Shown here in pieces: positions 35,164-54,570 of a stretch of DNA of 64,000 nucleotides. The notes beneath the pieces are model-generated. The model was not told the origin of the DNA. It was given only the letters and a program-made list of their open reading frames with translations, and did no database searches. The position numbers and the translations under genes are program-made. Each line of letters begins with the position of its first letter. The stretch's first letter is position 1. The DNA is from Treponemataceae bacterium (lineage in GTDB: Bacteria; Spirochaetota; Spirochaetia; Treponematales; Rectinemataceae). The stretch is taken from assembly GCA_963667725.2 (NCBI GenBank), contig CAXXHO010000003.1, positions 1,600,001-1,664,000 of the forward strand, in the 5' to 3' direction.

Positions 35164-35355
35164 ATGACCCTTGAATACGAAGATATCGAAGAGCTGAGGA
35201 AGGCGCTCGCAAATGTTGAATTCGGCAAGGTGGAGATGCAGATTCATGAAAGTATCATCATTTCAATAACCGTTACCACCGTTAAGAAGAAGCCAGTACC
35301 CAAGAAGGATCGAATCGTAGTACATACGCCCTCAAAACCATTAAAATTGGTTTAA
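35164..35355 (+). CDS. Small DUF2292/YezD-like protein, copy 1
   Basis: L..V.FG.VE..IHE pattern; paralog at 41922. Confidence 0.6.
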   Translation: MTLEYEDIEELRKALANVEFGKVEMQIHESIIISITVTTVKKKPVPKKDRIVVHTPSKPLKLV

Positions 35356-35401
35356 CCTTTAAATCCACAAATTTATAAGGTTGAAGCAATTGTTAGGCTT
35401 T

Positions 35402-36217
35402 TTATCCTTTATTCTCTTGTCCGCAATCTGTACCATCATTACTACTTTTCTCAGCTTCTTTTATTTTACTTTTTTGTTTTTCAATTTTCTTAATAGTTTT
35501 CAAATATTTATCATTAGTCTCAATTGCTTCAGGTGTATCTATAATTTCTCTTTTTAATACATCATTTACTATTATCGTATCTATTTCATCTACTTCAAAT
35601 TTAATTGTAGGATCAACTTTTCTAAATTCTCTTTTGATTGCTTCTATTACATATTCAGACCTAATAAATGCTCCTATATAATATTTATTAACAATCATCT
35701 TATGCTGTGTAAACTCATCTATTGCATTCTTCTTAATTCCTTCTTTACAAATAATATATAATTTATCTAAATCATTTCTATTTTTAATTTTTACATCTAA
35801 AATATTAAACTCACATACAAAATCAGTTTTTATTGGCTTTTCAAACTTAACTTTATATACTTTCCATACCACACCATTTGTAAGTATAATCCACTCATTT
35901 CCATTATTAGCACCGTAATCAAGTACTTGTTGATAATGCTTATCGGCAAGAGTCGTTCCAATTGCCTTTACTTCAATAAGGAACTTTACACTACCATCAA
36001 TTTTTACTGCTAAATCACAATATGTACTTTTTATGCAATATTCACGAGTAACTTCAGTATATTTATCATATCCAAAGAGAAGCGTTAATATATCTGTAAC
36101 TATTACAACAGTATCAGCTTCATTTATATCTCTATCTTTAGCTTGTTCTAGAATTTTTTGAATTTTCCCTAAATTTTCTTTGAATCTTTCAATAACCTTT
36201 ACATTGATTTGTGCCAT
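35402..36217 (-). CDS. Cassette: HsdR N-terminal/restriction endonuclease-like protein
   Basis: INEADT, CDLAVK..LIEVK, ILTNG motifs. Confidence 0.75.
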   Translation of the reverse strand: MAQINVKVIERFKENLGKIQKILEQAKDRDINEADTVVIVTDILTLLFGYDKYTEVTREYCIKSTYCDLAVKIDGSVKFLIEVKAIGTTLADKHYQQVLDYGANNGNEWIILTNGVVWKVYKVKFEKPIKTDFVCEFNILDVKIKNRNDLDKLYIICKEGIKKNAIDEFTQHKMIVNKYYIGAFIRSEYVIEAIKREFRKVDPTIKFEVDEIDTIIVNDVLKREIIDTPEAIETNDKYLKTIKKIEKQKSKIKEAEKSSNDGTDCGQENKG

Positions 36218-36343
36218 ACAAAACTCCTTTGATAAAATGCTTAAATTGCTAATCTTTAAAATTAGCTTTGTCTCGCGCCGAAAGCGTCATCCTAACATTG
36301 GCAATTAAAGTTTAGTATGTATCTTTGCGCGCCGAAGACGTCA

Positions 36344-36468
36344 ACCTAACATTGGCTTGACCCTTAACGCCAGATCCTGAGCGTAGCGAGGGATTGGCGT
36401 GGTTTATGCATTGTTGTTCTGCACAAACCATGACAAAGGGCGTTATAGGGTTGAAGCATTTGTTAGGC
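36344..36468 (-). repeat. attC site (representative of the family)
   Basis: Minus strand GCCTAAC...GTTAGGT (RYYYAAC/GTTRRRY) with a long imperfect palindrome. Confidence 0.88.
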
Positions 36469-37221
36469 GATAGCACTTCTTCTTTTCTTACACTTTATCA
36501 CTATATAAATTGGCTCATTAAGTAAATCTTCGTATCTATCATTATTACTCTCTCTCCATTTTACTGGAGGTCCTGGTTCTTGTATCTCTTTTACTTCTAA
36601 CCCAGCTTCTCTTAGCCCATTTATATAGTCAGAAAAAGTATAATGATAGCTTTTGCATACAACTCCATTCTTACTCTTTCCATATTTTGTCCATGGTTGA
36701 TAGTACTCTCGTATCTCTTTATGTAGATATCGTATTTTCCATTCTCCATCTTTATCAAATGGGTATTCTGCAGTATATAGTGGATGCATAGCCGATAGGA
36801 TAACAATTCCATTTTCTGCAAGAACATTATGGATACTTCTAAAAGCTTCTTTAAGATCCGGAAAGTAATGTGTGGCTGTTGATGAAAAAACAAAATCAAA
36901 CTTTTCAGACACTATCTCACTGATGTCTTCTACTGAACACTTTTGAAACTTAATCCGATAACTTTTATTCTTATTTTTAGCATAAGCTAACATTTCTTCA
37001 GATATATCTATTCCAAGAATAGATTTTGGCTCATATGAATCAAAGTAGAACGAGAATCTTCCAGTTCCACATCCAATATCCAAGATTGTTTTATCTTTCA
37101 ATATTGGAAGCATTTCTTTAATACAAGGCCATTCTATCTCATTACTATATGAATTTTCTCTATTCGTAAAATCTTCATAATCTGAAGTCATTGAATCCCA
37201 TATCGTTTCGATGTCTTTCAT
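36463..37221 (-). CDS. Cassette: class I SAM-dependent methyltransferase
   Basis: LDIGCGTG, DISEEML. Confidence 0.88.
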   Translation of the reverse strand: MKDIETIWDSMTSDYEDFTNRENSYSNEIEWPCIKEMLPILKDKTILDIGCGTGRFSFYFDSYEPKSILGIDISEEMLAYAKNKNKSYRIKFQKCSVEDISEIVSEKFDFVFSSTATHYFPDLKEAFRSIHNVLAENGIVILSAMHPLYTAEYPFDKDGEWKIRYLHKEIREYYQPWTKYGKSKNGVVCKSYHYTFSDYINGLREAGLEVKEIQEPGPPVKWRESNNDRYEDLLNEPIYIVIKCKKRRSAIA

Positions 37222-37420
37222 ACTTCCTGTTTCCTAATGAAAAGTATTTACTTTCTTAGCGCCTAAGGCGTCTGCCTAACGATGGCTTGACCTGCGAAAG
37301 GCGTTGGCGCGCAATTTGCATTGCAACTCACGCAAATTGCGTGACAATACCCTGAGTCAGGTCGAAACGATTGTTAGGCGACTTCATTTTTTAAGAATTA
37401 ATGAAATAATGCTTTATATA

Positions 37421-38095
37421 TTAATCAGAGAATCTGCATGCTCCCACAAATGCATACCCAAGCCTCGTAAACTCAACTCGTTGGTATGAAAACCATTCTG
37501 TACTACTACTACTCTCATCCCCCATTAAATAAGAACTCTGTGATGCTCTGCAAAGATTGAGTCTTACTAGGTTACCCATTAATAATTCATACTCCCATGT
37601 AGCTATCTTAAATACTTCTTGAATTTCGTTGAATGTTGCAATCCAACCAATTTGTTTATGAACACGATCTGTCATCCATTCCAAAATTCTTGCCTCAATT
37701 GAGGAAATCTCAGAGAGTATTTTTGGAAATGCAGGGGGAACTTTTTCGGGTTTCTCAGCAGCACTAGCTAATAATGCAGCCCATCTGTTTTTCATATCAG
37801 CTTCTTCTTCTAATGAACCCGCTTCAAGTAAGGGAGCAACTACTTTTGGTAGGAGACGTTTCGGTTCAATGCCCTTCTTCTCAAGAAAGGCTTTTGCTTT
37901 TAAAATTAGGTTTACTTTGTTCTTGAATCTCCAAAAGGCAACTGTATCACCAATTAATCCACCAGACTGTTCTAGACCAGGAACTATCAATTTATCAAGA
38001 TAATCTTTGGCGATCTTGGCCGTCTCTTCAATTCCTTTCTCAAGTGCAATACGCATCGGATCATTGGGTTGATGATTGTCACTCATACTACTCAA
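37421..38095 (-). CDS. Cassette: Abi-alpha/DUF4393-like protein
   Basis: PLLE..S.EE...M...WAALLA...PAF..IL..IS..EARIL pattern. Confidence 0.65.
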   Translation of the reverse strand: MSSMSDNHQPNDPMRIALEKGIEETAKIAKDYLDKLIVPGLEQSGGLIGDTVAFWRFKNKVNLILKAKAFLEKKGIEPKRLLPKVVAPLLEAGSLEEEADMKNRWAALLASAAEKPEKVPPAFPKILSEISSIEARILEWMTDRVHKQIGWIATFNEIQEVFKIATWEYELLMGNLVRLNLCRASQSSYLMGDESSSSTEWFSYQRVEFTRLGYAFVGACRFSD

Positions 38096-38219
38096 TCCTT
38101 AATATTTAGCTCCGTTTTTAGAGGCTCATTTTTTTTATTTATTTCAAATAATTCAAAGAAGAAATATACTTTGCGCAATACGCGTCCGCTTAACATCTCT
38201 TTATATATTTAATTAATGA

Positions 38220-38501
38220 CTATAGTTTACCTTGGAGTTTATGAGATCTTTGCCAGCCTGCTGCACTGCGAGATTGCACATAACATATAAGGAGATCGGC
38301 AACAGATCTTGATTGAACCCAACATATTTTTGAAGTTGCTGATGCGTCACTTTGAACAAAACACCATATGCCATCTACACCATCTGCGGGTCCGCGTGAT
38401 TCCGATATACAAACGAGCAAATCAGCTACAGATCTAGATTGTACTTCGCATACTAGATAATCTGCTGATGACCTAGATTCTTTTACCCTAATTAATGCCA
38501 T
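38220..38501 (-). CDS. Cassette: small repeat protein (DUF6150-like)
   Basis: Repeated V.SRS.ADL.V units; GGAGG RBS. Confidence 0.6.
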   Translation of the reverse strand: MALIRVKESRSSADYLVCEVQSRSVADLLVCISESRGPADGVDGIWCFVQSDASATSKICWVQSRSVADLLICYVQSRSAAGWQRSHKLQGKL

Positions 38502-38674
38502 AGTTCCTCCTATTTTAATAAGCGTGAAGCGTCCGCCTAACATTTTCGCTTAACCTTTAAATCCTGGCCTGAGCTACTGCGAAGGCTTGGCATGGTTTGT
38601 GCATTGTTGTTCCTGCACAAACCATGCCAAAGGATTTATAAGGTTGAAGCAGTTGTTAGTAGGTTACTCGAAAA

Positions 38675-40150
38675 TTAAGTATCAATTCTTAATTTATGAT
38701 TTTCTTCAGCTTTTTGTATATCTTTTGAGCTAATAAATTGACTAGATAGACTAAGCCACTTCAATACTTCAAAGTATGCATTATAATATTTTTTACTATC
38801 AAATTTAAAATAAACAAAATTATTTATATTAGAGGGTATTATAACTTTATCTTCAACAAGTACAAGAATTTTTTTTGAATTTTCTAATCCATAGTGTCTT
38901 AAGAAAAATCCTATTTCGTGATACACATTTGGACGCGAATAATTATTTTTTTTCTCAGTTATATCATTTTTAAGAATTGCAATAGTAAGTGTAGATTCAA
39001 GCATTGTTGAATATATTTTTTTTGATAATTCTTCCCCAAATCCAACTTGAACAATATTTGTTTTTGCTCCCTTATCAAAGAAATCTTCTTTAAGCCACTT
39101 ACTTAATTGAAACGCATATTCATTAGGTATTGTCTTTCCTTTCTTCTCATCATATTCCCAACTACATGTAATAAATATTTTTTCTTCTGTTGGTATAGAT
39201 ATTACTTCTCTTACATTGTTCTTTAAAACATATACAAGACTTGCTTTCCATTTATTTAAAGCAATTTCATCTAAAGAATTTTTTTCATTATCGATACTTT
39301 TTGAATTAAAAAATGTTGCTTTACAATTATAATTAATGTCTTTAGGATCCTTTATTCTTTTCAAACCGTCTTTCTTATTACTTTTATAGTATGTAGCATC
39401 ATCTGATATCATAGTACTATCTAATGTCCATAAATATCTCCAATGCTCTGCTAGAGAATTAAAAAGTTCAACGTCATCTGTTTCATTTGCACAAAGCATT
39501 GGATAATTTAGTAATAATTTATCAGAATTTATATTTTTTTTTGTTAGTATATATGCATCAGAATAAATATTATTATTAATTTTTAATATAGATACATTTA
39601 AGCTAGAAGTTGTAAATCTTACCATTACTTTATTTTCTTCATTATCAAAAGAAAGTAATTCTTCATTTATATAACTATGAATTGTTTTCAGAGAATTATT
39701 AAGATTTCTTACTGTCATTGAACCCCAAAATGTTCTTTCATCTATTTCATCAACTAAATCAAAACTTCTATAATATAATGGTTCATCAATAGTAGTTCTC
39801 TTTCTGCTATTTTCAGCTTGAAGAATAGAATACGTATAATCTGAAAATGGATAAACAAATAAAAGCCTAAATCTTACAGCAATCCCTTGATCGTTAATTG
39901 TTTTTATATTTTTTATTGTTTCTTGCAGTTTTTTAGCAATCGATGGATCGGAAAACATTCCCCCTAAATCAAAAAGAATGCTACCAGATAAACCTGCATA
40001 ATCTATTGTAGCTATTTTCTTATACTTACTTTCTTCTAGATCTAGTGGGTTTTTTTTGTCGTAAGCAGATTTAATTAATGAGTCAAGACATAAATCATTA
40101 ATTATTTTTTCATTTAACTCTTTTGAATATCTACTTTCATAATATTTCAT
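38675..40150 (-). CDS. Cassette: protein with C-terminal TIR-like nucleotide-binding domain
   Basis: IFITCS...RPNVYHEIGFF...IPSNI motif. Confidence 0.65.
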   Translation of the reverse strand: MKYYESRYSKELNEKIINDLCLDSLIKSAYDKKNPLDLEESKYKKIATIDYAGLSGSILFDLGGMFSDPSIAKKLQETIKNIKTINDQGIAVRFRLLFVYPFSDYTYSILQAENSRKRTTIDEPLYYRSFDLVDEIDERTFWGSMTVRNLNNSLKTIHSYINEELLSFDNEENKVMVRFTTSSLNVSILKINNNIYSDAYILTKKNINSDKLLLNYPMLCANETDDVELFNSLAEHWRYLWTLDSTMISDDATYYKSNKKDGLKRIKDPKDINYNCKATFFNSKSIDNEKNSLDEIALNKWKASLVYVLKNNVREVISIPTEEKIFITCSWEYDEKKGKTIPNEYAFQLSKWLKEDFFDKGAKTNIVQVGFGEELSKKIYSTMLESTLTIAILKNDITEKKNNYSRPNVYHEIGFFLRHYGLENSKKILVLVEDKVIIPSNINNFVYFKFDSKKYYNAYFEVLKWLSLSSQFISSKDIQKAEENHKLRIDT

Positions 40151-40373
40151 TTTTCACTCCTAAAATAAATTTCTTTGGTTTTGATACTTGTATTTATATA
40201 TATATCAAACTTAAATATTTTTTCTTGCCCGAAGGGTCAACCTAACATTGGCTTAACCCTTAACGCCTGTTCCTGAGCGAAGCGAAGGATTGGCGTGGTT
40301 TTTGCATTGTTGTTCTGCAAAAACCATGACAAAAGGCGTTATAGGGTTGAAGCATTTGTTAGATTTCTTTTAT

Positions 40374-40835
40374 CTATTTAGGAAATACTAAATCTACTGT
40401 TTTAAAAGACTCTGGTAATTTTAAATCTTTTACTAATCCATCATATATAATCATTACAATATCATTGTATTTATAATATTCTTCTTTTTGTATTTGTATT
40501 CGTTTTATCCATTTATCTTTTACATATTTATTTTTGATGCTTTTATCATACTCATCTACATCATGAGTTTCTAGCAAGATACCATTTTTTCTCATTAATC
40601 CAATTCTTCCAATAATTTCTTCATTCTTATTGCTACATTCAATTACTATTATTGAGTGATCACCATTTTTGCTTCCAGTAAATTCAATTATTCCTTTTTC
40701 ATAAGGGATAATGAATTTTTTCTTATTATCAAAAAGCAAATCATATTTACTACAACTTCCTAGAGATACACATAACAACACAACTTGAAGGAAAAGAATT
40801 AGAAAACGCTTCTTATTTCTAATATTTTTACTCAT
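40374..40835 (-). CDS. Cassette: hypothetical lipoprotein
   Basis: Basic N-terminus, hydrophobic stretch, LGSC lipobox. Confidence 0.6.
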   Translation of the reverse strand: MSKNIRNKKRFLILFLQVVLLCVSLGSCSKYDLLFDNKKKFIIPYEKGIIEFTGSKNGDHSIIVIECSNKNEEIIGRIGLMRKNGILLETHDVDEYDKSIKNKYVKDKWIKRIQIQKEEYYKYNDIVMIIYDGLVKDLKLPESFKTVDLVFPK

Positions 40836-41041
40836 AGAGTTTGCCTACTTTATCTGAATAAAATATTCTCTATATAGATTTGCTTACTTCTATGGAAACA
40901 AATATTACTTCTTTTAACCGAACTCTTGTTAACCTAACACTAACAATAAAATGATCAGAAAATTGCTTTTATTACCTAATTCACTAATTTTGCAGTGCCA
41001 CCGAAATTATGCAATGTTTTATTTCTGCCCGCGCAGCGTGA

Positions 41042-41555
41042 ATCTAACAATAATTGGATTGTTCCAGATAAATTTGAAATACCAAGAATTACCTTTCTTT
41101 GTAATGGGATAGATAAGTTCTATCCTAAAAAATAGAATATTTTTTGGAAAAGAAATACAAATTTCCTGTTATACGAATATATCTTTTATACTGTTAGGCA
41201 TAAATTCTAAATGATAATAGTATATTTATAGTGGTAGTATCATTTTCTCAGGAAAGGCAACTATGCTTCTCATCTCTCTTCTAATGACTATACTAGGTAA
41301 TGTTCTTTCCTAGCAGCCCTTCCCGGCTGTTACTGAAAGACGCTTGATAACAACACATGAGCGTGTTCTTCGCCGAAACAGAATGAATACGCTCGGGGAA
41401 CTTTCCTAAACTTTAATATTTTATGTTTCTTTGTTATCATAAAGAGTCTATCTGGAAAGTCAATCTGAAAACGATATTCTCTATTGGTTAATGTAGAGTA
41501 ATCAACTCTTTTTACATCATTAATTATTACTATATCAGTAATCATTAAGCAGGCA
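41042..41555 (-). promoter_or_regulatory. attI/Pc-like platform 1
   Basis: GTTAGAT core at the array head; TTGACT-N16-TATGAT at 41436-41463; homologous to 54058-54570. Confidence 0.6.
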
Positions 41556-41921: not shown

Positions 41922-42140
41922 ATGACCCCGGGAAACGAGGATATTAAGGAGCTGAGGGAGGCGTTGGTCAATGTCAAATTTGGGGAGGTGGAGGTACGGG
42001 TTCATGAAGGATCTAATTTTTCAATGACGATCACTACCTTAAAGAATAAGCTTGCGGCTAACAAAGAGAGGGTTGTCATACATTCCCGCCTACGGAGTAG
42101 CGACAAAGGAGAAGTGAGACATAAGCAATGCGATTCTTAA
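41922..42140 (+). CDS. Small DUF2292/YezD-like protein, copy 2
   Basis: Paralog of 35164-35355 with a similar RBS context. Confidence 0.6.
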   Translation: MTPGNEDIKELREALVNVKFGEVEVRVHEGSNFSMTITTLKNKLAANKERVVIHSRLRSSDKGEVRHKQCDS

Positions 42141-42735
42141 GCTCACAAGTTATATCCTTAACACCGAGGGAGGGGGGGGCAAATCTCTAGGGCATTTAGG
42201 TGTAAACCGCAGCGTTTCGGCTCACTCCCACTCTACGGATTCAGGGGGTAAGGGGGTCACGAAAAAATATTCTAAATAATCTTCAATTTTTTAATAAACC
42301 AGATCATAGTCCAAGCATTGTTAAAAGGGAGATAAAGGCTCTAGGAACAGTTGTATAATCAGGAATGACATTAATACTAGGATGTGTTATATAATGTGCT
42401 CCAGAATGTACAAAACTTGATTCACCTTTCAAATGTAGCTCGATTAATCACAAAGTAAAAGCTAATCTTTCTCCTATTACCTGCTTTTTCTAACCGTTAC
42501 CATTCATGGAAACTAGGGACCGATGAAATTACTAATAACCTTATTCGCTAATACTCATCAAAAGGATCCGACATGAAACATGTTTCACTAATCGCTGTAA
42601 CCGTATTGCCTACAAACTCAATATGAAACATCGTAAGAAGTTTGGTTATAAAAACCATTTCGGGTTATTCTACAACGTCGCCTCTCCGTTGCCCCTCGAC
42701 CTTGAATTCAGGTTAATCTCATGGATACTCAGTTC

Positions 42736-43509
42736 TTATGCTTTCTTGCCAATATAAAAAACATACCCATAGTACTGTTTGTATTTTGAATATAGCTCAG
42801 CTTCATACTTCATGTTTTCAACAAAATCTTTAGCAGCACTATTCCCTGCATGTTCACTTAAAAATGTTTTTTGTATTGCTTGTTGCGGTTTGAAATAAGT
42901 ATCAATCCAGCATGTTTCTGGTAACGTAAACGCAGCAACAAGCCTATACCCTGTGTTTTGCATTACAGAAATATTATACCCAATTGTATCCATTTCAGGG
43001 ACAGCATCAACCCAGAACTTTTCAATTTCAGTAGGTCGTTCATCGGTAAACCATGACTCATATGTTATAGCAATATAGCCATCTTTCTTTAGAAATTCTT
43101 TCCAATAGTTCAATCCCTTTCTAAATCCAATATTGGCAATGGCCCCTTCAGACCATATAACATCAAATTTTTCATTTCGAAACGGTAAATTATCCATTGA
43201 ACCAACGATACCTTTTACCCTATTCTGCAAACCGAGTCTTTTAGCGTTTGCATTAAATTTACCTACAAAATCGGGGAAAATATCAAGCCCAGTAATAGTA
43301 CCTTTTGTATGTTGTGCAAGAGTCATCGTTTGACCGCCTGTTCCACAGGCAAGATCCGCAATTTTTATTTCACTTGAAAAATTATCAATAAATCTTAATG
43401 CCCTAATAGTAGATTCTGAACTACCAGGTCCCTGCCGTTCCAACCTTCCAAAATAGTCACAGATCAATTCTAAATCAAAATCATGAATTGACATTTCTTT
43501 ATTTTCCAT
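42736..43509 (-). CDS. Cassette: class I SAM methyltransferase
   Basis: RQGPGS, DLACGTG, IWSEGA. Confidence 0.88.
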
Positions 43510-43793
43510 AGGTAAAATCCTTTATCAAGAGAATACTACTATACGGCTAAATCTTTTTTAAAGAGCAGTGAAAATGATATTACCTTTAACCCTTACTATT
43601 ATCCTTTTTTCTTCTTGCGCGAAGCGTCAATTTAGCATTCGTTTAGCCTACGAGCGAATTCCCGAGCCACGCGAGGGATTGGTGTCATTCTTGCTCGCTT
43701 CTTACTAATTATGGCTTTCTTCTCTTCTTCCTTTCAACCTCACCAGAATAATGACAACGTGCGAGTCAGGTTGAAACGGTTATTAGGCGATAA

Positions 43794-44546
43794 CTATTTT
43801 TTTACTCCAACGACCTTTGTCCATGTAAAGTTTCCACCATCAAGCTCAAGCATTTCTACGTCACCAGTCCTTTTTAGTATCCCGGCTTCTTTCAGTGTTT
43901 TATCCCAATGTAGCCATATATTATACCCATTAGGCATATTCTCTGCTTTTAGTACATCAACACATTCTGACCTGGCCCATAACCTTGACCACCATTCCGG
44001 TGTATGGTGTGTATAATTGTATGGTTCCCAATATTCCCCTATTCTTTCAATATCTTCTTGCGTCCATTCATGGTTTACACCAGGTACAACAATGCCTATC
44101 TCACCCTTTGGTTTGAGGTATTTCGTTATGTATGACACATACATCTCATCTGTACCAAAATAGTGATATGCATCTAGGCTTACTACTGCATCAAAAAAAC
44201 CATACGCAAATGGCAGGGAATGTGCTTCTATGTTAATGGGATATACCAAATCTTCAACTTCTTTATCCTTTATTCGTACAAAGTTATCTACTGCCTTTAT
44301 CCAAAGATCAGCAGCCCAAACCTGGGCCTTATATTCTTTGGCTATAAATATTGAACTTAATGCTTTCCCGCATCCAAGATCTAATACACGCATCCCCGCA
44401 TGCAATCCCATTGTTTCACATAGATACTCTACAAGCCATGTTGAGCTTGGTCCCATCTCGTTTTCATTCAACCATTCTATGTCATATTTTGCTGATAACG
44501 GGAATTGTGGTGACTTCATCTTTTCTTGAAGCATTAGCTTGTCCAT
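43794..44546 (-). CDS. Cassette: SAM methyltransferase
   Basis: LDLGCGK, DAYHYFG. Confidence 0.85.
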   Translation of the reverse strand: MDKLMLQEKMKSPQFPLSAKYDIEWLNENEMGPSSTWLVEYLCETMGLHAGMRVLDLGCGKALSSIFIAKEYKAQVWAADLWIKAVDNFVRIKDKEVEDLVYPINIEAHSLPFAYGFFDAVVSLDAYHYFGTDEMYVSYITKYLKPKGEIGIVVPGVNHEWTQEDIERIGEYWEPYNYTHHTPEWWSRLWARSECVDVLKAENMPNGYNIWLHWDKTLKEAGILKRTGDVEMLELDGGNFTWTKVVGVKK

Positions 44547-44650
44547 GATTAATCCAATCCTCACAACATCATTAGTTACAATACCATTACTATTTTACTT
44601 GCGCGAAGTACAAGTCCGCCTAACATTGGCTATAACAATCTTTTTGCTTT

Positions 44651-44983
44651 TCATCTTGTTTTCGCTATCTGAAGCAGTTCTATTGGCATTCCTTCCTCTT
44701 CAATAAATGCAACAAGATTCCCTTCTGACGGGCTATTAGGCAGAATTATTACCTTTTTATCTTTGATGTATTCATACAGATCTTCTACTTCAAAGGCAAG
44801 GTGTGGTCTTGTTTTTACGAGTTCTGGAAGAAGACAATCCTCTTCATACCGCATATACTCAATTCCATATATGCTATTCTCAAATCCATAATGATAGCAT
44901 TTATATTCTTTGAGATATACTTCCCCAATTATTCGTTCTTTTACTGGTACACCAAGATGATGATATTTCAGTCGATTATCCAT
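44651..44983 (-). CDS. Cassette: VOC/glyoxalase-like protein
   Basis: HHLGVP, HLAFEV, IELL. Confidence 0.75.
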   Translation of the reverse strand: MDNRLKYHHLGVPVKERIIGEVYLKEYKCYHYGFENSIYGIEYMRYEEDCLLPELVKTRPHLAFEVEDLYEYIKDKKVIILPNSPSEGNLVAFIEEEGMPIELLQIAKTR

Positions 44984-45166
44984 AGTATTTTTGCCTTTAT
45001 CCTGAATTGTGATGCACGCAAAGCGTGTCCGACTAACATTTGCTTACCCCTTAACGGCCGCTCCTGAGCAAAGCGAAGGATTGGCGTGGTTTGTGCATTG
45101 TTGTTCTTGCACAAACCATGACAAAAGACTTTTAAGGTTGAAACATGTGTTAGCCGATTCTTTTCT

Positions 45167-46156
45167 CTATAGTGTTCCCGATTCTACCAATTCCAAGAAA
45201 ATTTTCCCAAGCTTTGGGTCAAACTGAGTTCCTAAATTGGCATATATTATATCTATTGCTTCTTTTACATTAAGTGCTTTTCTATATGATCTAGTAGAAG
45301 TAATTGCATCATAGGTATCAGCAAGAGCTAAAATCCTACTTCCGATATTTATTTCATCTCCTCTTTGTCTATCAGGATATCCATTTCCGTCATATCTTTC
45401 ATGATGATGTTTGGCAATATCAATTACTTCCTTAAGATTCAAAAAGGGTGATAGTATTTGCGCTGTTATTGTTGGATGCTTCTGCATCTCAATCATTTCT
45501 GCTTCTGTGAGTTTTCCCGACTTATTTAGAATTGTTTCGCTTACACCGATTTTCCCAATATCATGAAGCTTTGCAGCAAGTTCAATATCCGCATAGAGTT
45601 GTGATTGACCATATACTTCTTGCACATATTTTGTTGATATTTTTGTTACTCTCTCCGAGTGACCTTTTGTATATATATATTTAGCTTCTAGAGTATAGAC
45701 TAAAGAATTTAGGGACTCAATAAAAAGACTATTTAATCGATCAGTTAATCCTGTTATTTCTAGTTTGAGCTTTTGATTATACTTAAGGTTTTCTTCCTCT
45801 ACTCTATGTTTTTCAGTTATATCTCTTGATAATACTATTGAGCCTACTTTTAAATCTTTATCATTAGAAATGATTTGATAAATATTTTCATAAACTTTAC
45901 CGTTAGCATTATCGATAACCATTCTCTTGAATGATTTTTCTTTTTCTTGCAAATAAACAACAGCACGCCGAACCTTTTCATGTGATTCTGGTTTATGACA
46001 GCTAATAATATTTTGTCCAATTTTTTCTTCTCGTTTGATATGTCTTATCTTTTCAGCAGCACTATTCACAAAAATGATTTCATCATTTTCATCAGCTACT
46101 ACCAGCCCATCTGGAAGATTTTCAAGGATAGTTTTGTAAATCATTTGATCTGACAT
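45167..46156 (-). CDS. Cassette: PAS + HD-GYP phosphodiesterase
   Basis: PAS N-terminus; HDIGK, HHERYDGNGYP. Confidence 0.9.
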   Translation of the reverse strand: MSDQMIYKTILENLPDGLVVADENDEIIFVNSAAEKIRHIKREEKIGQNIISCHKPESHEKVRRAVVYLQEKEKSFKRMVIDNANGKVYENIYQIISNDKDLKVGSIVLSRDITEKHRVEEENLKYNQKLKLEITGLTDRLNSLFIESLNSLVYTLEAKYIYTKGHSERVTKISTKYVQEVYGQSQLYADIELAAKLHDIGKIGVSETILNKSGKLTEAEMIEMQKHPTITAQILSPFLNLKEVIDIAKHHHERYDGNGYPDRQRGDEINIGSRILALADTYDAITSTRSYRKALNVKEAIDIIYANLGTQFDPKLGKIFLELVESGTL

Positions 46157-46303
46157 AACTGTTTTTCTCCTTAATTCTGCCTAGAGGGTCTGGTTAACAT
46201 CGACTTTAAGCTTGGAGCTTCGATCGCGAAGCGGTTGGCGCACTTTTTGTGTGAACTTCTCGCAAAATGTGTGACAAAGAAGCGACTCATCTTGAAGCAG
46301 TTG

Positions 46304-46828
46304 TTAGAATTCCTCTTTTACTTTTGATTCAAATACTATCGGCAAATAAGCTTCAAATATTGTAACAAATTCCTTTGTCTTCATCATCTTGTGTATTTCT
46401 TCTTTACTTACTATCCTCGCTTCTTCTACTTCTGTTTCTTGACATACTATATCTTCAATCTTAACCTTTTGTTCGAATAGCCATACATCAACAAAGTTAG
46501 GGCTAAATGTATTAGTCCCATCGTACTGATGTATGATTCTTCCATTTTTTGGATCCAGATCTATTCCTAATTCTTCTTTTGTTTCCTTCAATGCTGTGGT
46601 AAGGCTATCGTGGCCTGCTATAGCTGATCCGCCAGTACATTCCCATAAGCCAGGGAATATTGGCCTATTATTCTTTCTCTTTGATATAATATATCGATTC
46701 TTTGATGTTCTTACCCAAACGTGTACAACTAAATGGAAATCACCGTCTGCAAGTTTTTTCCCTCGTTGTATTGTTCTTCCAGTTTTATTCCGATTTGAAT
46801 CAAGAATATCCCAATACTCATTTTCCAT
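46304..46828 (-). CDS. Cassette: NUDIX hydrolase
   Basis: GG......TALKETKEELG Nudix box. Confidence 0.88.
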   Translation of the reverse strand: MENEYWDILDSNRNKTGRTIQRGKKLADGDFHLVVHVWVRTSKNRYIISKRKNNRPIFPGLWECTGGSAIAGHDSLTTALKETKEELGIDLDPKNGRIIHQYDGTNTFSPNFVDVWLFEQKVKIEDIVCQETEVEEARIVSKEEIHKMMKTKEFVTIFEAYLPIVFESKVKEEF

Positions 46829-47032
46829 ATATTGTTCCATGTTTTCATGTGATCTTAATAGGTAATTCTTGCATTCGCTTAACCTGTTAGCGCATACCCA
46901 AGCGAAGCGAGGGTTTGGCAACATTATTGCGGCTATCTTAAGTGCAGCTTTCTTTATTCTATACGTGCATCACGCAAGAATGATACCAAAGCGTGAGTTA
47001 GGCTTAAGCATGTGTTAAGTCGTTTTTCTTTA

Positions 47033-47614
47033 TCATATTTCATATTTCTTTAATTCTTCATTACCATATAATTCGAAATACTCTTGTGAAATTATATCCA
47101 TCAATATTTCATCATAGTATTTGTTCCCAATAATTCGTCTATGCCTATGTCTCCCAATAATTTTGAATCCTACTTTTTCATATAAATGTATCGCTGGTTT
47201 ATTGAATTCCCATGTCCCAAGCTGAACACTCTCTAGATTTATATCGATAAATGCATGTTTCAACATTAATTGTATTGATTCTATTCCAAAACCTTTTCTT
47301 CTGTTTTCTTCTCCATAAATCATAATACTCAACGTTCCAGATCTATTATATATATCAATTGAATTGATACTTATATCTCCAATTATTATATTAGTATCTT
47401 CTCGAAATATTACGTAGGTTTGATCTTTTTGATATCCTTCTAGTTTATCTTTCATTTGTTTTTCATATACAGCACTGCCGCAATTCCGACCATATACTTT
47501 TATATGGTCATCATTCATATAATTTGCAAGAATTGGAATATCATTTTCTTGAAGTGGATTAAGATAAACCTTTTTACCAACCATAGACATAAACTTTGTC
47601 ATAAGTAACTCCAT
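47033..47614 (-). CDS. Cassette: GNAT (RimJ/RimL) acetyltransferase
   Basis: RRKGFG, N.PAI.LYEKVGF. Confidence 0.88.
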   Translation of the reverse strand: MELLMTKFMSMVGKKVYLNPLQENDIPILANYMNDDHIKVYGRNCGSAVYEKQMKDKLEGYQKDQTYVIFREDTNIIIGDISINSIDIYNRSGTLSIMIYGEENRRKGFGIESIQLMLKHAFIDINLESVQLGTWEFNKPAIHLYEKVGFKIIGRHRHRRIIGNKYYDEILMDIISQEYFELYGNEELKKYEI

Positions 47615-47755
47615 TTAGCATTTTCAGTCTTCATTTTCGTAAATCGACCTAATATTCGTTTAGCCTTTAAATCCGTGCCCGAAGGGCTTGGCACGTTTTG
47701 TGCGTTGTTGTTCTACACAAAACATGCCAAAGGATTTATAAGGTTGAAACGGTTG

Positions 47756-48733
47756 TTATGCGCTTTTTCTTAAGTTACTATAATAATCTATAAGCCCAAT
47801 CCTAAACGCTATATCATTAACCTTTCTCTCTTCTTTTCTCCAATCATTTTCAAGCGATATTCCTGAATATGCACCCCATTTCGTAAACGAATATGGTCTC
47901 TTAATATTTTTGATACTTTCTATCATGTTCTCAACATTATTTAGATTTCTGTTCACTTTTTTAAGGGTATTGATGTCTCTAAGTAATCCCATTCTTGCTA
48001 AGTATTCGTTTCTTATTAACCATTCTGCTTTTTTATCATCATTACATTCAATAAAATCGGTATCTATTTCATGCATTAAGTAACTACCTGGAGCTATCAA
48101 TTGCCCTTTATAAGGAATATAGACATTAGGAATGGGCTGCAATCTACAAAGTCTTTCAAATGCTTTTACCATCATTTCAATAGTATGGACACTTTTCCAA
48201 GATTTTGAAAATGCCAATACTCTAAAATTATAATAATCAGGGAATAGCTTCCCTTCTTTATAAACCCATGTGTCGCTCTTCTTTACTGCAAAGTCATCTA
48301 TCGAACTATAATCAAGTACTGCTTTAAAGCACTTTAATGAATGCTCAATACGTTCAATAACATCAGGATGCGAATCGAACCCTGAACTCGCTAAGAGTGA
48401 TGCCTTTATCGTTACCGATGCACTATACCCCTTATCTTCAACGTACTTACCTACTTTCGTGATTCCTCTTGTAAACAGTGCGCCGTTATTATCTGTTTGA
48501 CGAACTAATTCAAGGATTCTTTTATAATGCGGCTCATCTTTATCAATTCCATACTCAGAAAGGATTTTTGCTAAACTTTCTATACTATTATACCCATGAA
48601 ACAGCACCTTCTCGAAGCTCATAGTATCTATAATATTGAAAACATCTTTTATGATTTTCATATCAGCAATTTGATTGTTGATATCAGATGAGCAACTTTT
48701 AAGTAGTCCTAAAGCAAACAATCGTTTACGCAT
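47756..48733 (-). CDS. Cassette: hypothetical protein
   Basis: Long ORF between attC sites; start uncertain. Confidence 0.6.
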   Translation of the reverse strand: MRKRLFALGLLKSCSSDINNQIADMKIIKDVFNIIDTMSFEKVLFHGYNSIESLAKILSEYGIDKDEPHYKRILELVRQTDNNGALFTRGITKVGKYVEDKGYSASVTIKASLLASSGFDSHPDVIERIEHSLKCFKAVLDYSSIDDFAVKKSDTWVYKEGKLFPDYYNFRVLAFSKSWKSVHTIEMMVKAFERLCRLQPIPNVYIPYKGQLIAPGSYLMHEIDTDFIECNDDKKAEWLIRNEYLARMGLLRDINTLKKVNRNLNNVENMIESIKNIKRPYSFTKWGAYSGISLENDWRKEERKVNDIAFRIGLIDYYSNLRKSA

Positions 48734-48939
48734 TGCTGGAGAAGGATTTCTTATGTAGCGAAACACTATTTCTCCTGATTGCGCGCGCGTAGCGCGTCCG
48801 CATAACATTGGCTTGACCCTTAACGCGTCCATTGGTGTGATTCTTGCCACACTTTACGTTACAGCTCCTGCTTTACGTCGATTCGCAAAAACCATGACAA
48901 TAGCGTTATAGGGTCGAAGCGGGTGTTAGGTGCTATTTT

Positions 48940-49632
48940 TTACTTTAGTAGCACTTCTAGCTCGTCCCAAGAATGTATAATATTTTCTTTAATATCTTCA
49001 GATCTATTTGTATTACCAGTATATAAAAACGGAATCATCCCAACATTTTTACTCGCTATATAGTCGTTTTCCCTGTTATCCCCAATAAACCAGATATCAT
49101 TACTTTTTAAGCTAAGCTTCCCTCTTGCTAACTCAAATATGAAGGGATGTGGCTTTCTTATTCCATAATCTGCACTAGAAATTACAAATTCAAAATACTT
49201 GTTTATCCCATGACTTTCCAATTCATACTCAAGAGTATTTCCACAAAAAGTATTATTGCTTATAATACCTATTCGAATATTTTTTGATTTTATTATATTT
49301 AAAGTATTATTAATTCCAGGTGCTAAATATTCTTCTACAACTTTTTTAAAGTATTCTATTTCAATAGAATTATTTGTTTCAACTTTCATCTGAAGACTTT
49401 CAAATATAAGCTTTATAGCTGATACCCAAGAATGCTCAATTAGAGATGACATTCTTTTAGGTCGTATATCACTATATATTTTTTCTTTATGCTCGTTAAA
49501 TTCCTTGAATGATACCTTTTTGGGGTTGCTTGCATTGTTAAAAAGCCATAAGTTTCCTTTATCCCAGTCAAGCTTCGTCTCATGGAATATTGTATCTGCA
49601 AAATCAAATAATATTGCCTTTGGTTTTTTCAT
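48940..49632 (-). CDS. Cassette: HAD hydrolase
   Basis: FDFADT, KPHP, IGD...D. Confidence 0.88.
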   Translation of the reverse strand: MKKPKAILFDFADTIFHETKLDWDKGNLWLFNNASNPKKVSFKEFNEHKEKIYSDIRPKRMSSLIEHSWVSAIKLIFESLQMKVETNNSIEIEYFKKVVEEYLAPGINNTLNIIKSKNIRIGIISNNTFCGNTLEYELESHGINKYFEFVISSADYGIRKPHPFIFELARGKLSLKSNDIWFIGDNRENDYIASKNVGMIPFLYTGNTNRSEDIKENIIHSWDELEVLLK

Positions 49633-49659
49633 TTTTCCTCTGCGTGAAGCGTCCACCTA

Positions 49660-51300
49660 GGGATTCCTGAAGAACCCGCTTTTCAATCTTTCAAGCCGCT
49701 CTCAACAGCCCCATTGGTATAAATTTTAATCGTTCTGCTATTTCAATAATCGTATCAATGAGCAACACAAAAAGGGCTTTCGCCTTTCTCCTTGCCAACA
49801 CCATGAGGTTCATCACCAAGAATACCATCATGATGGAAGTCTCGCTCGTTTCCTTAAGCTTCGTTCCAATACTATCGAGCGTATAACGTCGTTTCGCTTC
49901 TCCAAACTTGCCCTCTACCGCGATCCTCATGCTCTCATCTTCTCGCTCGATTCTTTTTTGTTCACGTATTCGTTCTTTATTCTTGCCGTTAACCTTGAAC
50001 GGCCTTCCCAGCTTCGGCCCCGATAATCGTATCCCATACTCTTGGCAGTACTGCAGATTCTCCCTCGTCCTATAGATCTTATCGGCGCATACCGCTTCTG
50101 GATATCTCCCATATCGCCGCTTATAGCTTTCTATTTGCCCTTTCAAATCTTTGCATTCGTTGTAGGAATCCCATGAGAGCCTATAGACTTCCGCCATTCC
50201 ATCAACAAGGCTCAACGAGAGCTTCGCTCCAAACTCATACATTCCTCGGGCCTTTCCTCTCGCGATCGGACGCACCCAAGGCTTACTTATGCTTAAGATC
50301 CTTCCTTCTATCGACCAGGTGTCACTGCGGTACAATTCTCTCTGCTGGCGGACCAATTCTCCGATTACCCACAGATCCTGCCGCTGCTTTCTCGAGAGCG
50401 AAGTTATCCCTACTTTGTCCTTGTATTCATTGATCAACCGCAGGTTCCGCTCGACATATTGGATCTGCGTTTTCAACGCTCTCCTTATCGTATTCACTCT
50501 CGGCTTTCGGTTCCGTATGAAGGTCAGAAACTCTTTTCTCGCCTTCTTCCTATACGTCCTTGGTTTTTCCCAACCCTCCGGCATTTCTTTCTGGAGCGTA
50601 TCGATGATACTTTCAGTCTTCCTTCTCGCTTCATCCAGCAAGGTCACATCATGGGGGAATCTCATATCTTCGGGAGCGCAGGTAGCATCAACGATCAAGG
50701 TCCCTTTATTCTCTTGCCCTTTCTCTTCTCCATCCCCTGCGCCGTTGCCTTTATCTTCATCATCATGGTGTTCATCGTCGGCTTTGCTCTTCTCGATGAT
50801 CAATGAATTCACTTCTTTCAGGACGTCAGCAGATAATCGTTTCCTGAAATGCACCATCATGCTCGGATCGAAAGGTATCTCATATTTGTATCCTTCGTAT
50901 CCTAAGAAGAACTGTAGATAAGGACTCTCTCGAATATCCTCCACCAGTTCTTCATCTGAAAGATTCTTCTTCTCTTTTATTATGAGAGCGCCTAACGCGA
51001 CTCTCACCGGTATCGCCGGCCTTCCATTATTAGCGACGAACAGCTTTGAATATTTCTCTTCGACATCTTTCCAAGGGATCAGGCTTGCCAAGATTACCCA
51101 ACGATTATCCGCTTTCAAGCTGCCGCCGAACACCATGTCGAACTGATCAAACTCAGGCGTATACTTTGGTATTCTGTACATCTTCGCCTTCCAAGTGCAC
51201 GACTTTTTCACGCTTTTCTTCAATTTCCGTGCACTTTTCCGGTCCATTATATCATATATTCCTTTAACTGATTTGACTTTATTTCTTTTTCAGGAGCCCC
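49660..51300 (-). mobile_element. IS5-family insertion sequence
   Basis: Imperfect 15-bp IRs (GGGATTCCTGAAGAA / GGGGCTCCTGAAAAA); 6-bp duplication CACCTA. Confidence 0.88.
49691..51247 (-). CDS. IS5-family transposase
   Basis: NRWV.LA..IPW, VDAT, ADKIY, VEGKFG motifs; true start may be 51181. Confidence 0.9.
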   Translation of the reverse strand: MDRKSARKLKKSVKKSCTWKAKMYRIPKYTPEFDQFDMVFGGSLKADNRWVILASLIPWKDVEEKYSKLFVANNGRPAIPVRVALGALIIKEKKNLSDEELVEDIRESPYLQFFLGYEGYKYEIPFDPSMMVHFRKRLSADVLKEVNSLIIEKSKADDEHHDDEDKGNGAGDGEEKGQENKGTLIVDATCAPEDMRFPHDVTLLDEARRKTESIIDTLQKEMPEGWEKPRTYRKKARKEFLTFIRNRKPRVNTIRRALKTQIQYVERNLRLINEYKDKVGITSLSRKQRQDLWVIGELVRQQRELYRSDTWSIEGRILSISKPWVRPIARGKARGMYEFGAKLSLSLVDGMAEVYRLSWDSYNECKDLKGQIESYKRRYGRYPEAVCADKIYRTRENLQYCQEYGIRLSGPKLGRPFKVNGKNKERIREQKRIEREDESMRIAVEGKFGEAKRRYTLDSIGTKLKETSETSIMMVFLVMNLMVLARRKAKALFVLLIDTIIEIAERLKFIPMGLLRAA

Positions 51301-51453
51301 CACCTAACATTTTTGCTTAAGCTGGGAGCTTCGATCGCGAAACGGTTGGCGCGCTTTGTGCATTGTTGTTCTGCACAAAACGTACTAAAGGATTTATAAG
51401 GTTGAAGCATTTGTTCGGCAGTTCTTCATTCTCTTATTTCCTCACAAAACATA

Positions 51454-52320
51454 TCATTCTAAAACAATCATTTCTTCACAATAGTCGGTATAAGGCCGTA
51501 TCTTATTGTAATTTCGTATGAATCGAAGCTTCGGATCTATTTGTTGTATTAAAATGTTTGTCGATTCTTCATTATACCTTTTACATATGTTTCGCGTATC
51601 TAAATCAAGTATTTTACATGCCTCTAAAGTTGGACAAAAATTCATCGAATGAAATACAAGCTTTTTATTATTTCTATTTACTATTGGTGCTTCTTTCTGG
51701 TCTATTCCAAAACGACACAACAGTAGTCTATAGGCACTTTGTAGTGAATCTTCACTGAGAAATCTAAATAAATCTTTCTTTTCATCAAACCAGGCTAATC
51801 TTCGATTAACTGAGTCCTTACAAAGAATATCGAGCCCTTCTTCATTTATATTCCGTAGCCTTTTTACTTCATCACGAACAGTTTTATTATATAATAATTC
51901 ACAGTTATGAAATAAAATACCGGAATGAACAACTACTTCTTTTCCTGCTCTATCAAAAACTTCTTTACATAATAAATTGATCCTTTTTCTCCCTTGCTCA
52001 ATTGATTGTTCTATAGAATAGCCATATGCAACTTCAGCGATTCCTGACCACACAATGGCAGAAGAACACATGGGACACGGCTCATGAGTAGACACAATCA
52101 TACATTTAGAAAGGTCCTTACCAATTATTTTTGTTGCATGCTTTATTGCATTAATCTCTGCATGTGATGTGGGATCACAAAGTGTTTCTTCTTCATCATG
52201 TGCTTGTGAAAGTATTTCATTGCCTTTTACTATTACTGCACCAAAGCCATGATTACCTTCTTTTAAGCTAGTTTTAGCTTCATGGACTGCGATTTCCATT
52301 ATACTTTCGATAAAGCTCAT
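51454..52320 (-). CDS. Cassette: nucleoside deaminase with C-terminal extra domain
   Basis: HAE and PCPMC zinc motifs. Confidence 0.85.
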   Translation of the reverse strand: MSFIESIMEIAVHEAKTSLKEGNHGFGAVIVKGNEILSQAHDEEETLCDPTSHAEINAIKHATKIIGKDLSKCMIVSTHEPCPMCSSAIVWSGIAEVAYGYSIEQSIEQGRKRINLLCKEVFDRAGKEVVVHSGILFHNCELLYNKTVRDEVKRLRNINEEGLDILCKDSVNRRLAWFDEKKDLFRFLSEDSLQSAYRLLLCRFGIDQKEAPIVNRNNKKLVFHSMNFCPTLEACKILDLDTRNICKRYNEESTNILIQQIDPKLRFIRNYNKIRPYTDYCEEMIVLE

Positions 52321-52498
52321 TTAATTCCTACTCAATAACAGTATTTTTTCTAGACACTTAATCCGCCAAACATTTTCGCTTAACCTTTAAGCTCGACCTG
52401 AGCGAACGCGAAGGTTTAGCGCGATTCTTGCACCACTTTACGTTGCCGCTCCTACTTTACTGAATCTCGCAAGAATCGTGACAAAGGGCTTATAAGGT

Positions 52499-52981
52499 TC
52501 AAGCGGGTGTTGGGTTTCTTCTTTTAAAATCTTTCAATTGTCTTATTATTCCAAGATGGAATGCACAATGAGCGATTATTGCTATACTTCCACCTAAGTA
52601 ATCTTCATTTTCCCATTTATCTATCTCTTCTACAAATTCCTTAAGATTCTTGTATTCTTCTTTTAATCGCTTCTTGAGTTCTTCCCATTCCTCTTTTCTA
52701 ACATCTTTTATCTTCCAACTTTCATTCCAATCTGTCTTCCCTGTTCTCTTCCCTGTTATATATTCCTTTAAAACTACTATATAAAAGATTACATGGTTTA
52801 CATGTCCAGCTATTGTTTCAGGTATCGCATGAAAGCTCTTTCCAACTTTTTCATACGGTATGGTATCAATTGTTTCAAATAGTGATGTATTTTTATCTAG
52901 GTATATTCCATGAGACCGTTCAAATGTTTCTTCAAGTACTTCAAGTATCTGTTTTTTAACAATGTCTTCTGTAATATTCAT
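52499..52981 (-). CDS. Cassette: DinB-like protein
   Basis: IAGHV.H...HCAFHLG.IRQ. Confidence 0.7.
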   Translation of the reverse strand: MNITEDIVKKQILEVLEETFERSHGIYLDKNTSLFETIDTIPYEKVGKSFHAIPETIAGHVNHVIFYIVVLKEYITGKRTGKTDWNESWKIKDVRKEEWEELKKRLKEEYKNLKEFVEEIDKWENEDYLGGSIAIIAHCAFHLGIIRQLKDFKRRNPTPA

Positions 52982-53176
52982 TCGCCTGCTCCTTTTATCG
53001 TTTATATACAATTCAAGAAGATTGCTTTTTATCTTCCTGTGCGGGAGCGTCAACCTAACATTGGCTTAACCCTTAACGCCAGCTCCTGAGCGAAGCGAGG
53101 GATTGGCGTGGTTTTTACGTCATCTTCTCGCAAAAACCATGACAAAAGGAGTTATAGGGTTGAAGCATGTGTTAGG

Positions 53177-53722
53177 TTATTCTTTCTTCATTATTGTTCT
53201 TTGTACCCATGTGATATTATTCTTCGAATAATCATCTTCAGAATATATATGCCATTCTCTCCATTCTTTTGTCTCTTCATAATCATTCTCTTTAATAAAT
53301 CTTGATAATGGTTTATATGATTTAGGTACAGACCAATTAGTACCCCATACTAGGATTCCTGCCACAACTGTTGATTTTACTTTTTCTATCTTTGCATTAG
53401 TCTCTACTTTTAATCCTTTCTCAATTTTGAATCCTACTTGAACAGTATACATTTTATTTTCAGGTAGATCTAAGAACCTTACTAATAATGCTGGTGTGTT
53501 TTCTGTATTAAAGATTCTTATATACTCTTCATATATTTTTGGAGTAATTCTCCGTACTGATCGTAGAGCATCATCTTCAAATATATTTGCTTCTTCATGA
53601 TAAAAGTAATTGAATCCAATAACTCTTTGAAGTTTTGGCTCACTAATAACACATTCAGGAATGGATATACCAGTTTTAAGATCTCTCATTTCCATAGCAG
53701 CCTCACAATTGATATTCAACAT
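53177..53722 (-). CDS. Cassette: GyrI-like small-molecule-binding protein
   Basis: Y..L..FIKEN.Y......E.. C-terminal pattern. Confidence 0.5.
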   Translation of the reverse strand: MLNINCEAAMEMRDLKTGISIPECVISEPKLQRVIGFNYFYHEEANIFEDDALRSVRRITPKIYEEYIRIFNTENTPALLVRFLDLPENKMYTVQVGFKIEKGLKVETNAKIEKVKSTVVAGILVWGTNWSVPKSYKPLSRFIKENDYEETKEWREWHIYSEDDYSKNNITWVQRTIMKKE

Positions 53723-54057
53723 ATTGTTATTAAATCTTACACTTTGGCGCGAAGCGTCAACCTAACATTTGTTTAACCTTTAAACCCGTCCCGAGCTACT
53801 GCGAGGGATTGGCGCGATTCTTGCAACACTCTAGTAAGCAGTAACATTCTAATGTGATATGCAAGAAGCGTGACAATAGGGTTTATAAGGTTGAAACGTT
53901 TGTTAGAATTTTCACCCCAAAGAGCACTTCTTTCTTCTCTTCTCTTTTACTAATCTACTTTCTTCTCTTCGCCGTTTTTTATGTGGATAAACCACGCGAG
54001 AATAAGGGAAAGACGCGCCGCTTCTCTTCCCTTTTCGAGCATCTATTCACTCAATAA

Positions 54058-54570
54058 TTCTAACAATATTTTGATTGTTCCAGATAAATCCTAATTGCTG
54101 AGAATTGCTTTTCTTAGTAATGCCATAAAAAATTAGTCCTAAAGAGTAAATAGTTATCAAGTAAAGGAATGAAAAAGTATTTTTGTACAAAAATACTTTT
54201 TATAAAGTTTGGCATATTTCTAATTACAAATAGTAGATTTATTGCAATAATACCTTTATAGCATGGCAGGCGATCATGCTTCTAAACCTTACCCTAACGA
54301 ATATCTCAAGTAATGCCTTTCCCTTACAGCCTTTCCAGACTGTAAGGGAAAGAGGAAGGATAGCATCAAATGAGTGTACCCTTCGCCGAAACAGAATGAA
54401 TACGCTCCAGTAACTTTCCTAAACCCTTGCTATGTATGTCTTTTTGTCATGATAAAGTGCTTACCTGAAAAGTCAATCTGAAAACATTATTTTCTTTTAG
54501 AATAGTTCTAAATATTTCTCTTTTAAATCACTATATAATACTAGATTAGTAACCATTAAGCGAGCCAAGT
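54058..54570 (-). promoter_or_regulatory. attI/Pc-like platform 2
   Basis: GTTAGAA core at the array head; TTGACT-N16-TATCAT at 54449-54476; homologous to 41042-41555. Confidence 0.6.

Follow-up and report, generated by a model that had tools for sequence, protein, structure and literature searches.

Why should an integrated phage derivative carry two arrays of integron gene cassettes in the place of its late genes, and no integron integrase gene (intI) to move them? The question is raised by a 39,822-bp prophage-derived element, running from attL to attR at a tRNA-Pro(CGG) gene, in a Treponemataceae bacterium (assembly GCA_963667725.2, contig CAXXHO010000003.1, positions 1,600,001 to 1,664,000); this whole stretch of 64,000 nucleotides is called the window below, and positions in it are counted from its first letter. 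A preliminary description, made from the letters themselves, had recognised integron cassettes in a prophage-like element and had proposed a host integrase acting on them. Because the host genome holds three intI genes, an attC family shared with the window, the same leader core and attI sites with which attI-1 of the window ranks, and because first cassettes vary between samples, we read the element as two intI-less docking platforms on a phage derivative without late genes, onto which integron integrases (IntI) of the host probably load cassettes in trans. The attI-plus-promoter platforms, their leader hairpin and a kept cos-like motif lie beyond the preliminary account.

attC sites, cassettes and host integrases

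The repeats have the organisation of attC sites, with inverted R''-L''...L'-R' boxes and AAC and GTT cores. A profile built from 162 sites of the host array on contig C5 finds 15 of them on the minus strand between 35372 and 53908, 60-159 nt long, 14 being matched over the full length at E 7e-11 or better and one, short, at E 4e-4; the sole match elsewhere in the window has an E of 0.52. The training sites had first been chosen with a profile of 12 window sites, and the test is for that reason not fully independent. Nine of the 15 fold with z -2.6 or lower against dinucleotide shuffles. Both extrahelical bases are clear in nine of the 12 sites that could be parsed, mostly C and A on the top strand and so G and T on the bottom one, and the GTT is intact in eight of these 12 and, by eye, in three unparsed sites. 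In each array the R' box is decayed at the far end, in four distal sites altogether. The preliminary description's about 14 palindromic repeats are thus borne out as attC-type, on the evidence of the extrahelical bases as well as of the profile.

Between the sites lie co-oriented single genes: 17 minus-strand open reading frames (ORFs), in line with the number proposed, besides an IS5-family transposase gene and two ORF-less units. The GC content is 31-37% across 35.3 to 54.1 kb compared with 57% in the early region of the element, and repeats and genes do all fall between attL and attR. They form two arrays (Table 1), and each of these has a leader and an attI-like site to itself. The IS5-family element in array 2 is 100% identical to two copies on C5, and the attC of that array's first cassette is 99.3% identical to a host attC. 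PADLOC matches on the window cassettes are partial domain matches, and we therefore do not term the cargo a defence library. The cassette junctions at 36290, 38186 and 44617 retain only the last dozen attC bases, with the neighbours fused. Rfam has no family for attC or leader at the gathering cut-off; the best match, PyrR at E 0.057, is weak and was rejected. With 15 attC, where two or more without a nearby intI suffice, the locus is a clustering of attC sites without integron-integrases (CALIN).

No similarity to IntI was found in the window (best tblastn match E 1.3; no match to TIGR02249), as the preliminary description had held, and no IntI remnant in or near the leaders, where the spacer between hairpin and attI-like site has stops in all sense frames. 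Nor does an intI adjoin either attI-like site, as one would in a complete integron. Elsewhere in the host genome there are three full intI genes above the TIGR02249 cut-off, on C1, C5 and C7, contigs other than that of the element. Their arrays hold 38, 168 and 33 cassette-strand attC, about 240 in total and of the same family as those in the window, so that the host does contain the intI and matching attC for which the preliminary description had suggested looking. Those window attC that lie nearest attI share 95-99% identity with sites of the host. The host intI genes point toward their own arrays, as intI does in Treponema (PMC3607928). The host's own family is Rectinemataceae, whose records bear that name or Rectinema and not the Treponema of the preliminary description.

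Leaders, attI-like sites and hairpin

Both arrays are headed by homologous 570-nt leaders, 71% identical, in which a TTGACT promoter-like site is followed after about 60 nt by an invariant 17-nt core and after a further 335 nt or so by the attI-like site. The core occurs seven times in the genome, three times before intI and four times before intI-less arrays: twice in the window, once in a sister element described below and once at C3:352 kb. The promoter-like sites match the consensus at 10 of 12 positions and are kept in 12 aligned leaders; single scans do not place them above chance. A matrix of 27 positions, taken from 14 distinct intI-linked attI of relatives and run over the 4.2-Mb genome, puts the three host attI in the first three places, window attI-1 in the fourth, with 22.0 bits and none of 200 shuffles scoring as high, and the sister's site in the fifth. 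An attI-like site stands at the array head as in a complete integron, significantly so for site 1, whereas attI-2 has in its favour only its positional homology to site 1 and the cassette boundary.

The leader hairpin is conserved as a structure. In its stem 87% of cells are paired and five of 14 pairs are changed on both sides, a score reached by two of 500 shuffles; the loop pairs are invariant, and the sequences compared are related by kinship. A covariance model of it matches 22 of 69 family genomes, with only two weak matches in 115 genomes outside the family. Of 23 loci outside the host genome, 13 lie before intI, two before the same upstream gene on short contigs, three before cas genes (two by Pfam, one by eye), and five are other or weak. 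The exact 17-nt core was found in 52 GTDB stretches, five before intI and two before cas genes, the others chance-like, and of nine viral matches one proved real. In relatives the hairpin stands in front of a cas1 operon and of cas6-cas10 operons (L019/L068, L018/L069, L225), and one genus has two small genes between hairpin and intI (L211-L213, L215, L216, L219). A second stem lies 3' of the hairpin in all four platforms; a terminator scan called none in either window leader.

What might such a hairpin do? A UNCG leader hairpin is a signal for antitermination by LoaP (PMC12691694), and the leaders carry one. By the description of that hairpin, the likeness extends to its UUCG cap, its place in the 5' leader of long operons and the presence of a LoaP-like gene, whereas the known targets of LoaP are Bacillus antibiotic clusters, unlike the window arrays (PMC12691694). 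All 69 family genomes have LoaP-like matches at E 1e-20; since NusG attains that level too, co-occurrence with the hairpin is uninformative. A literature search on integrons with antitermination, cassettes and NusG gave only an unrelated match. Recruitment of a LoaP-like antiterminator by the hairpin is a reasonable but still tentative proposal, to which we give somewhat less than even weight. The stretch G000:C5:48000-70000 of the host assembly holds a polysaccharide cluster, a second NusG paralogue and foreign-looking genes, and is possibly contamination (6% in the assembly).

The phage frame and its missing late region

In two intact relatives from IMG/VR, G401 and G402, which have early genes and methyltransferase in common with the element, DUF2292 is followed by HNH, a GC-rich motif, terS, terL, portal, capsid and tail genes, giving 20-21 kb of late genes and no attC. 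These sit exactly where the window arrays lie, as the preliminary description had supposed of the arrays, and the span replaced is 19.2 kb. No terminase, portal, capsid, tail or lysis genes, and no terS or capsid-size genes, were found on the element, and nothing in the host genome matches terL or capsid families. The element thus has genes for integration, regulation and replication and none for the virion, like a satellite; of a complete temperate phage it has the integrase and the attL/attR pair. The label prophage-like therefore stands as regards integrase, att pair and early genes, and fails as regards completeness. A parallel is lambda dg, a defective transducing phage. The element is a CALIN, neither a complete integron nor a complete phage, an integron-like platform with a probably borrowed integrase.

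Compared with the sister element, nine genes of the early region, including DUF2292, have ratios of nonsynonymous to synonymous change of 0.05-0.35. Read from these ratios and from their open frames, the kept integrase, repressor, excisionase and replication genes have been under purifying selection in the past. The repressor lacks the S24 domain of the sister's; without a self-cleaving domain it would suit induction by a helper, but the loss may be decay.

The one part of the late segment that is kept is the GC-rich motif of about 90 nt, 87% identical to G402 and aligned with G401 and the sister, which from its position and the layout of HK97-like phages we take to be a candidate cohesive-end site (cos). 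Because the late-less junction after this motif recurs in G050 (78% over 288 nt) and in sequencing runs X5, X6 and X9, and because run X5 also holds contigs in which the motif runs into terS, we regard the late-less form as a lineage living beside intact forms and not as a one-off deletion. Behind the motif, at 42260-42735, there is a decayed unit, of which the final 100 nt are matched by high-depth contigs from three runs, and around 42660-42710 what may be a short attC of a different type.

The sister element lies in the same genome (G000:C3:501400-534100; L009, L010) at tRNA-Glu; its early region is 78-93% identical to that of the window element, it terminates at the same cos-like motif, and no att repeat was found for it. 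It carries an intI-less platform after cI, with five attC and a NucC-like gene among the cassettes, and a two-cassette cluster between DUF2292 copies, comprising a SoFic-like Fic gene and a serine-hydrolase-like gene (by eye). Near 527800 of G050:C18 (L254, L255) a 3.2-kb module of DUF2292, two cassettes and cos-like motif stands right behind tRNA-Glu. It is 98.8% identical to the sister's, compared with 92-93% for the host flanks, which suggests, at the level of sequence, a recent transfer between species; no intI was found in G050 (92% complete). Near 823800 of G014:C3 (L244, L245) a prophage-like region has a hairpin variant, with antisense genes placed between those resembling capsid and portal genes; an attC there carries an insertion that by eye resembles the 3' end of a group II intron. 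That genome's one intI is 730 kb away, with none within 40 kb. We rejected this region as an equivalent platform and keep it as a loose parallel, since the intron-like piece intervenes and an attI was not found.

Table 1. Features of the element and its arrays (window positions)
Feature	Position	Strand	Remarks
tRNA-Pro	16302-16374
attL	16332..16375	+	3' half of tRNA-Pro(CGG); 44-bp perfect repeat, 100% identical to attR
Phage-type tyrosine integrase, not IntI	16496..17917	+	Open frame; PF00589, phrog_1; no TIGR02249 match
cI-like repressor	23029..23430	-	HTH only
Phage early/replication operon	25572..35136	+	Excisionase, RusA-like, ParB, replication initiator
DUF2292 copy 1	35164..35355	+	Array 1 abuts its 3' end; junction bridged by unitigs
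Array 1	35339..41048	-	5 attC, 6 ORFs (HSDR_N-like, methyltransferase, Abi_alpha, DUF6150, TIR-domain, unknown), 50-bp ORF-less unit
attI-like site 1	41046..41072	-	Crossover G at 41048
Leader hairpin 1	41353..41400	-	UUCG loop
Promoter-like site 1	41436..41463	-	sigma70-type
DUF2292 copy 2	41922..42140	+	With trace of the replication gene's 3' end
cos-like motif	42168..42259	+	GC-rich; ends just before the terS start codon in intact relatives
Array 2	42736..54064	-	10 attC, 11 ORFs (two methyltransferases, PAS/HD-GYP, Nudix, GNAT, HAD, deaminase, DinB-like, unknowns), one ORF-less cassette
IS5-family element	49658..51300	-	Beside an attC R'' box; 7-bp flanking repeat; NF033578
First cassette of array 2, ORF-less	53909..54064	-	11 relatives in the host C5 array, 80-88% identity
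attI-like site 2	54062..54088	-	Crossover G at 54064
Leader hairpin 2	54366..54413	-
Promoter-like site 2	54449..54476	-	sigma70-type
Phage DNA methyltransferase	54973..55809	-	74-77% identical to the intact relatives' enzymes
attR	56110..56153	+	44 bp, same as attL

The stretch 18005-21357, in the place after cI where the sister carries its platform, is occupied by an AT-rich operon for an ABC transporter and by an IS1595-family element with copies of 95% identity in the C5 array. The ORF at 29944-30795, without a Pfam or NCBIfam family, is a 39%-identical paralogue of a gene present in 369 of 401 genomes of the order, and its gene is also in G401 and G402; matching a near-universal host gene, it was dropped as a marker of the element. 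For the ORF at 32335-32943 no relative was found among 68 other genomes of the family. With ParB as the query nothing matched in the viral contigs; the replication gene gave eight matches there, seven to the N-terminus only and the eighth weak, and none of these contigs has attC.

Probable loading in trans and its alternatives

The evidence for cassette exchange lies at the array heads. In array 2, homology of the first cassette to its 11 copies on C5 begins at the crossover, the cassette being preceded by an attC in the host and by attI-2 here. In run X6 (study P3) one 8.8-kb contig joins the DUF2292/cos segment and attI-1 to a different cassette start, and run X9 (study P2) contributes a short contig on which leader-2-like letters (28 of 30, by eye) come after an attI of the attI-2 type, with a third cassette start; the differing cassettes come from two of four runs examined. 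The comparison of cassette content across related elements, which the preliminary description had recommended, gave a result from short matches: as read from these contigs, first-cassette turnover occurs at the expected base of attI sites across samples. Joints between attC sites in the source-sample unitigs were not accepted as evidence of excision, the repeats accounting for them.

Under the reading that we favour, a host IntI would excise cassettes by attC x attC recombination and insert them at attI-1 or attI-2, and newer insertions would push older cassettes outward, where their R' boxes decay. The promoter would read the arrays in the lysogen, against the direction of the early operon, and the element would excise with its own integrase. 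Packaging by a related helper phage, through the kept cos-like motif, is possible, though we should not expect it on balance. The platforms may themselves derive from a spirochaete-type integron, with promoter, hairpin, intI and attI in one direction, by removal of the intI frame: the hairpin-to-attI distance of 300-347 nt is about what the hairpin-to-start distance (105-137 nt after the core) and the stop-to-attI distance (158-181 nt) would add up to.

Several observations weigh against this reading. Six of the 15 attC fold no better than shuffles, and the 12.8 bits of attI-2, second in the window, lie within the shuffle range (mean 11.2, sd 2.3). The host LoaP-like gene, at G000:C3:1093699-1094256, scores 118.8 bits with NF033641, below the cut-off of 125, and no helper phage was found in the host genome. 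The X6 contig lacks 364 nt that include promoter and hairpin, and the attI matches are short, 31 nt in X9 and 82 nt in X6. Fifteen of the 19 cassette bodies match nothing in the host genome's arrays and two match at 67-70% only, and one shared cassette is only 80-88% identical to the host copies; most cargo therefore came earlier or from elsewhere. Finally, the hairpin-attI spacer has no similarity to host integron spacers, and the hairpin heads cas operons and cassette-free phage accessory genes too, so that descent by intI loss is not proven.

Could the arrays instead be static, a defective prophage having taken in pieces of a chromosomal integron by recombination or rearrangement and lost intI, with the attI as relics? 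The unmatched cassettes, the decayed distal attC, the IS5 insertion and the failure to find late genes or a helper in the genome would all suit such a history, and intI loss and rearrangement are among the published routes to CALINs (PMC4889954). It would not lead one to expect first cassettes that differ at the same attI in two other studies, proximal attC so close to host sites, an intact integrase, att pair and early genes, or a genome with four platforms that agree in spacing and show no trace of intI. We consider it unlikely, if worth keeping in view.

A different origin with the same working would be that a phage accessory leader, promoter and hairpin, itself gained an attI-like site and so recruits host IntI. 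The dissimilar spacer leaves room for this, as do G401, whose hairpin follows cI ahead of accessory genes with no attC, and the sister, whose platform stands at that same post-cI place. The -35 box, the spacing and the stem flanks nevertheless agree with intI leaders, 13 of the 23 model matches in other genomes precede intI, and the total distance fits removal of an intI frame; an origin within the phage is accordingly improbable.

We give still less credit to a gathering of cassettes at a short secondary (attG-type) site, with growth by attC x attC and no true attI, although IntI1 does insert cassettes at GWT sites (10.1101/2022.09.11.507474), the sister has a leaderless two-cassette cluster beside DUF2292, and attI-2 scores weakly. 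Both arrays begin at homologous sites of a duplicated 570-nt leader, and attI-1 fits the extended 27-position matrix above all 200 shuffles; it is not the short GWT target without attI likeness that would mark attG or a lone attC site that has no integron-integrase (SALIN). An assembly artefact in which attC repeats fused a prophage with a chromosomal integron, a concern of the preliminary description, is scarcely credible, for although those repeats break every unitig and no record spans the full stretch, source-sample unitigs without a single difference bridge 35112-36368 and 40339-43066 at flat depth, from DUF2292 into array 1 and from attI-1 through DUF2292 copy 2 to array 2, and the connection of attI-1 with the DUF2292/cos segment is seen in an independent study too. 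The unitigs come from the probable source sample and are not independent, and cassette order across the repeats is beyond their reach.

How does the proposed loading in trans onto such platforms compare with known systems? Phage CALINs are already known: Qi et al. 2023 (PMC9892861) describe 17, demonstrate phage attC as IntI substrates and report the cryptic Shewanella prophage M16-3, in which, as here, an attC cluster with its own attI and no adjacent intI lies within a prophage. M16-3 differs in having a complete integron too and in keeping head and tail genes around its CALIN (PMC9892861), whereas the window element has no intI, two platforms replacing the whole late region and attI turnover across samples. 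CALINs in IntI-encoding genomes have been regarded as hitchers on full integrons, with mobilisation in trans proposed (Cury et al. 2016, PMC4889954; PMC11389934). In the accessible accounts these are treated as cassette donors or relics, whereas the window arrays, with promoter and attI, are likely recipients and expression sites. Treponema-type chromosomal integrons are described as unassociated with mobile elements (Wu et al. 2013, PMC3607928); the platform, in contrast, is without intI and sits on an integrative phage derivative. Satellites of the phage-inducible chromosomal island (PICI) type likewise keep integrase, repressor, excisionase and replication genes, have no virion genes and apparently keep a packaging signal (PMC11389934); unlike them, the element is about 40 kb, near helper size, derives from a close intact relative and carries exchangeable cassettes. 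An attI platform replacing a late region was not reported in the literature listings, which mostly leave subscription papers uncovered, and the list of 17 by Qi et al. may hold closer cases.

The routes by which cassettes pass between sedentary chromosomal integrons, and the origin of CALINs, are open points (PMC4889954, PMC9892861), for which the element offers a defined test case, with two attI, three candidate integrases in the cell, intact helper candidates from IMG/VR and a candidate for the packaging signal. Should the hairpin act as an antitermination signal, it would account for the reading of long AT-rich arrays at a great distance from the promoter, and one regulator would tie together integrons, cas operons and prophage cargo in the family. 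More speculatively, and with considerable doubt on our part, the element may represent a helper-dependent lineage that swapped its late region for integrase-free docks, kept cos and near-genome length, rides in a relative's capsids and loads from host integrons, under a LoaP-type circuit common to host integrons and CRISPR-cas operons. If that is true, the lineage would be a dedicated carrier of cassettes from one sedentary integron to another.

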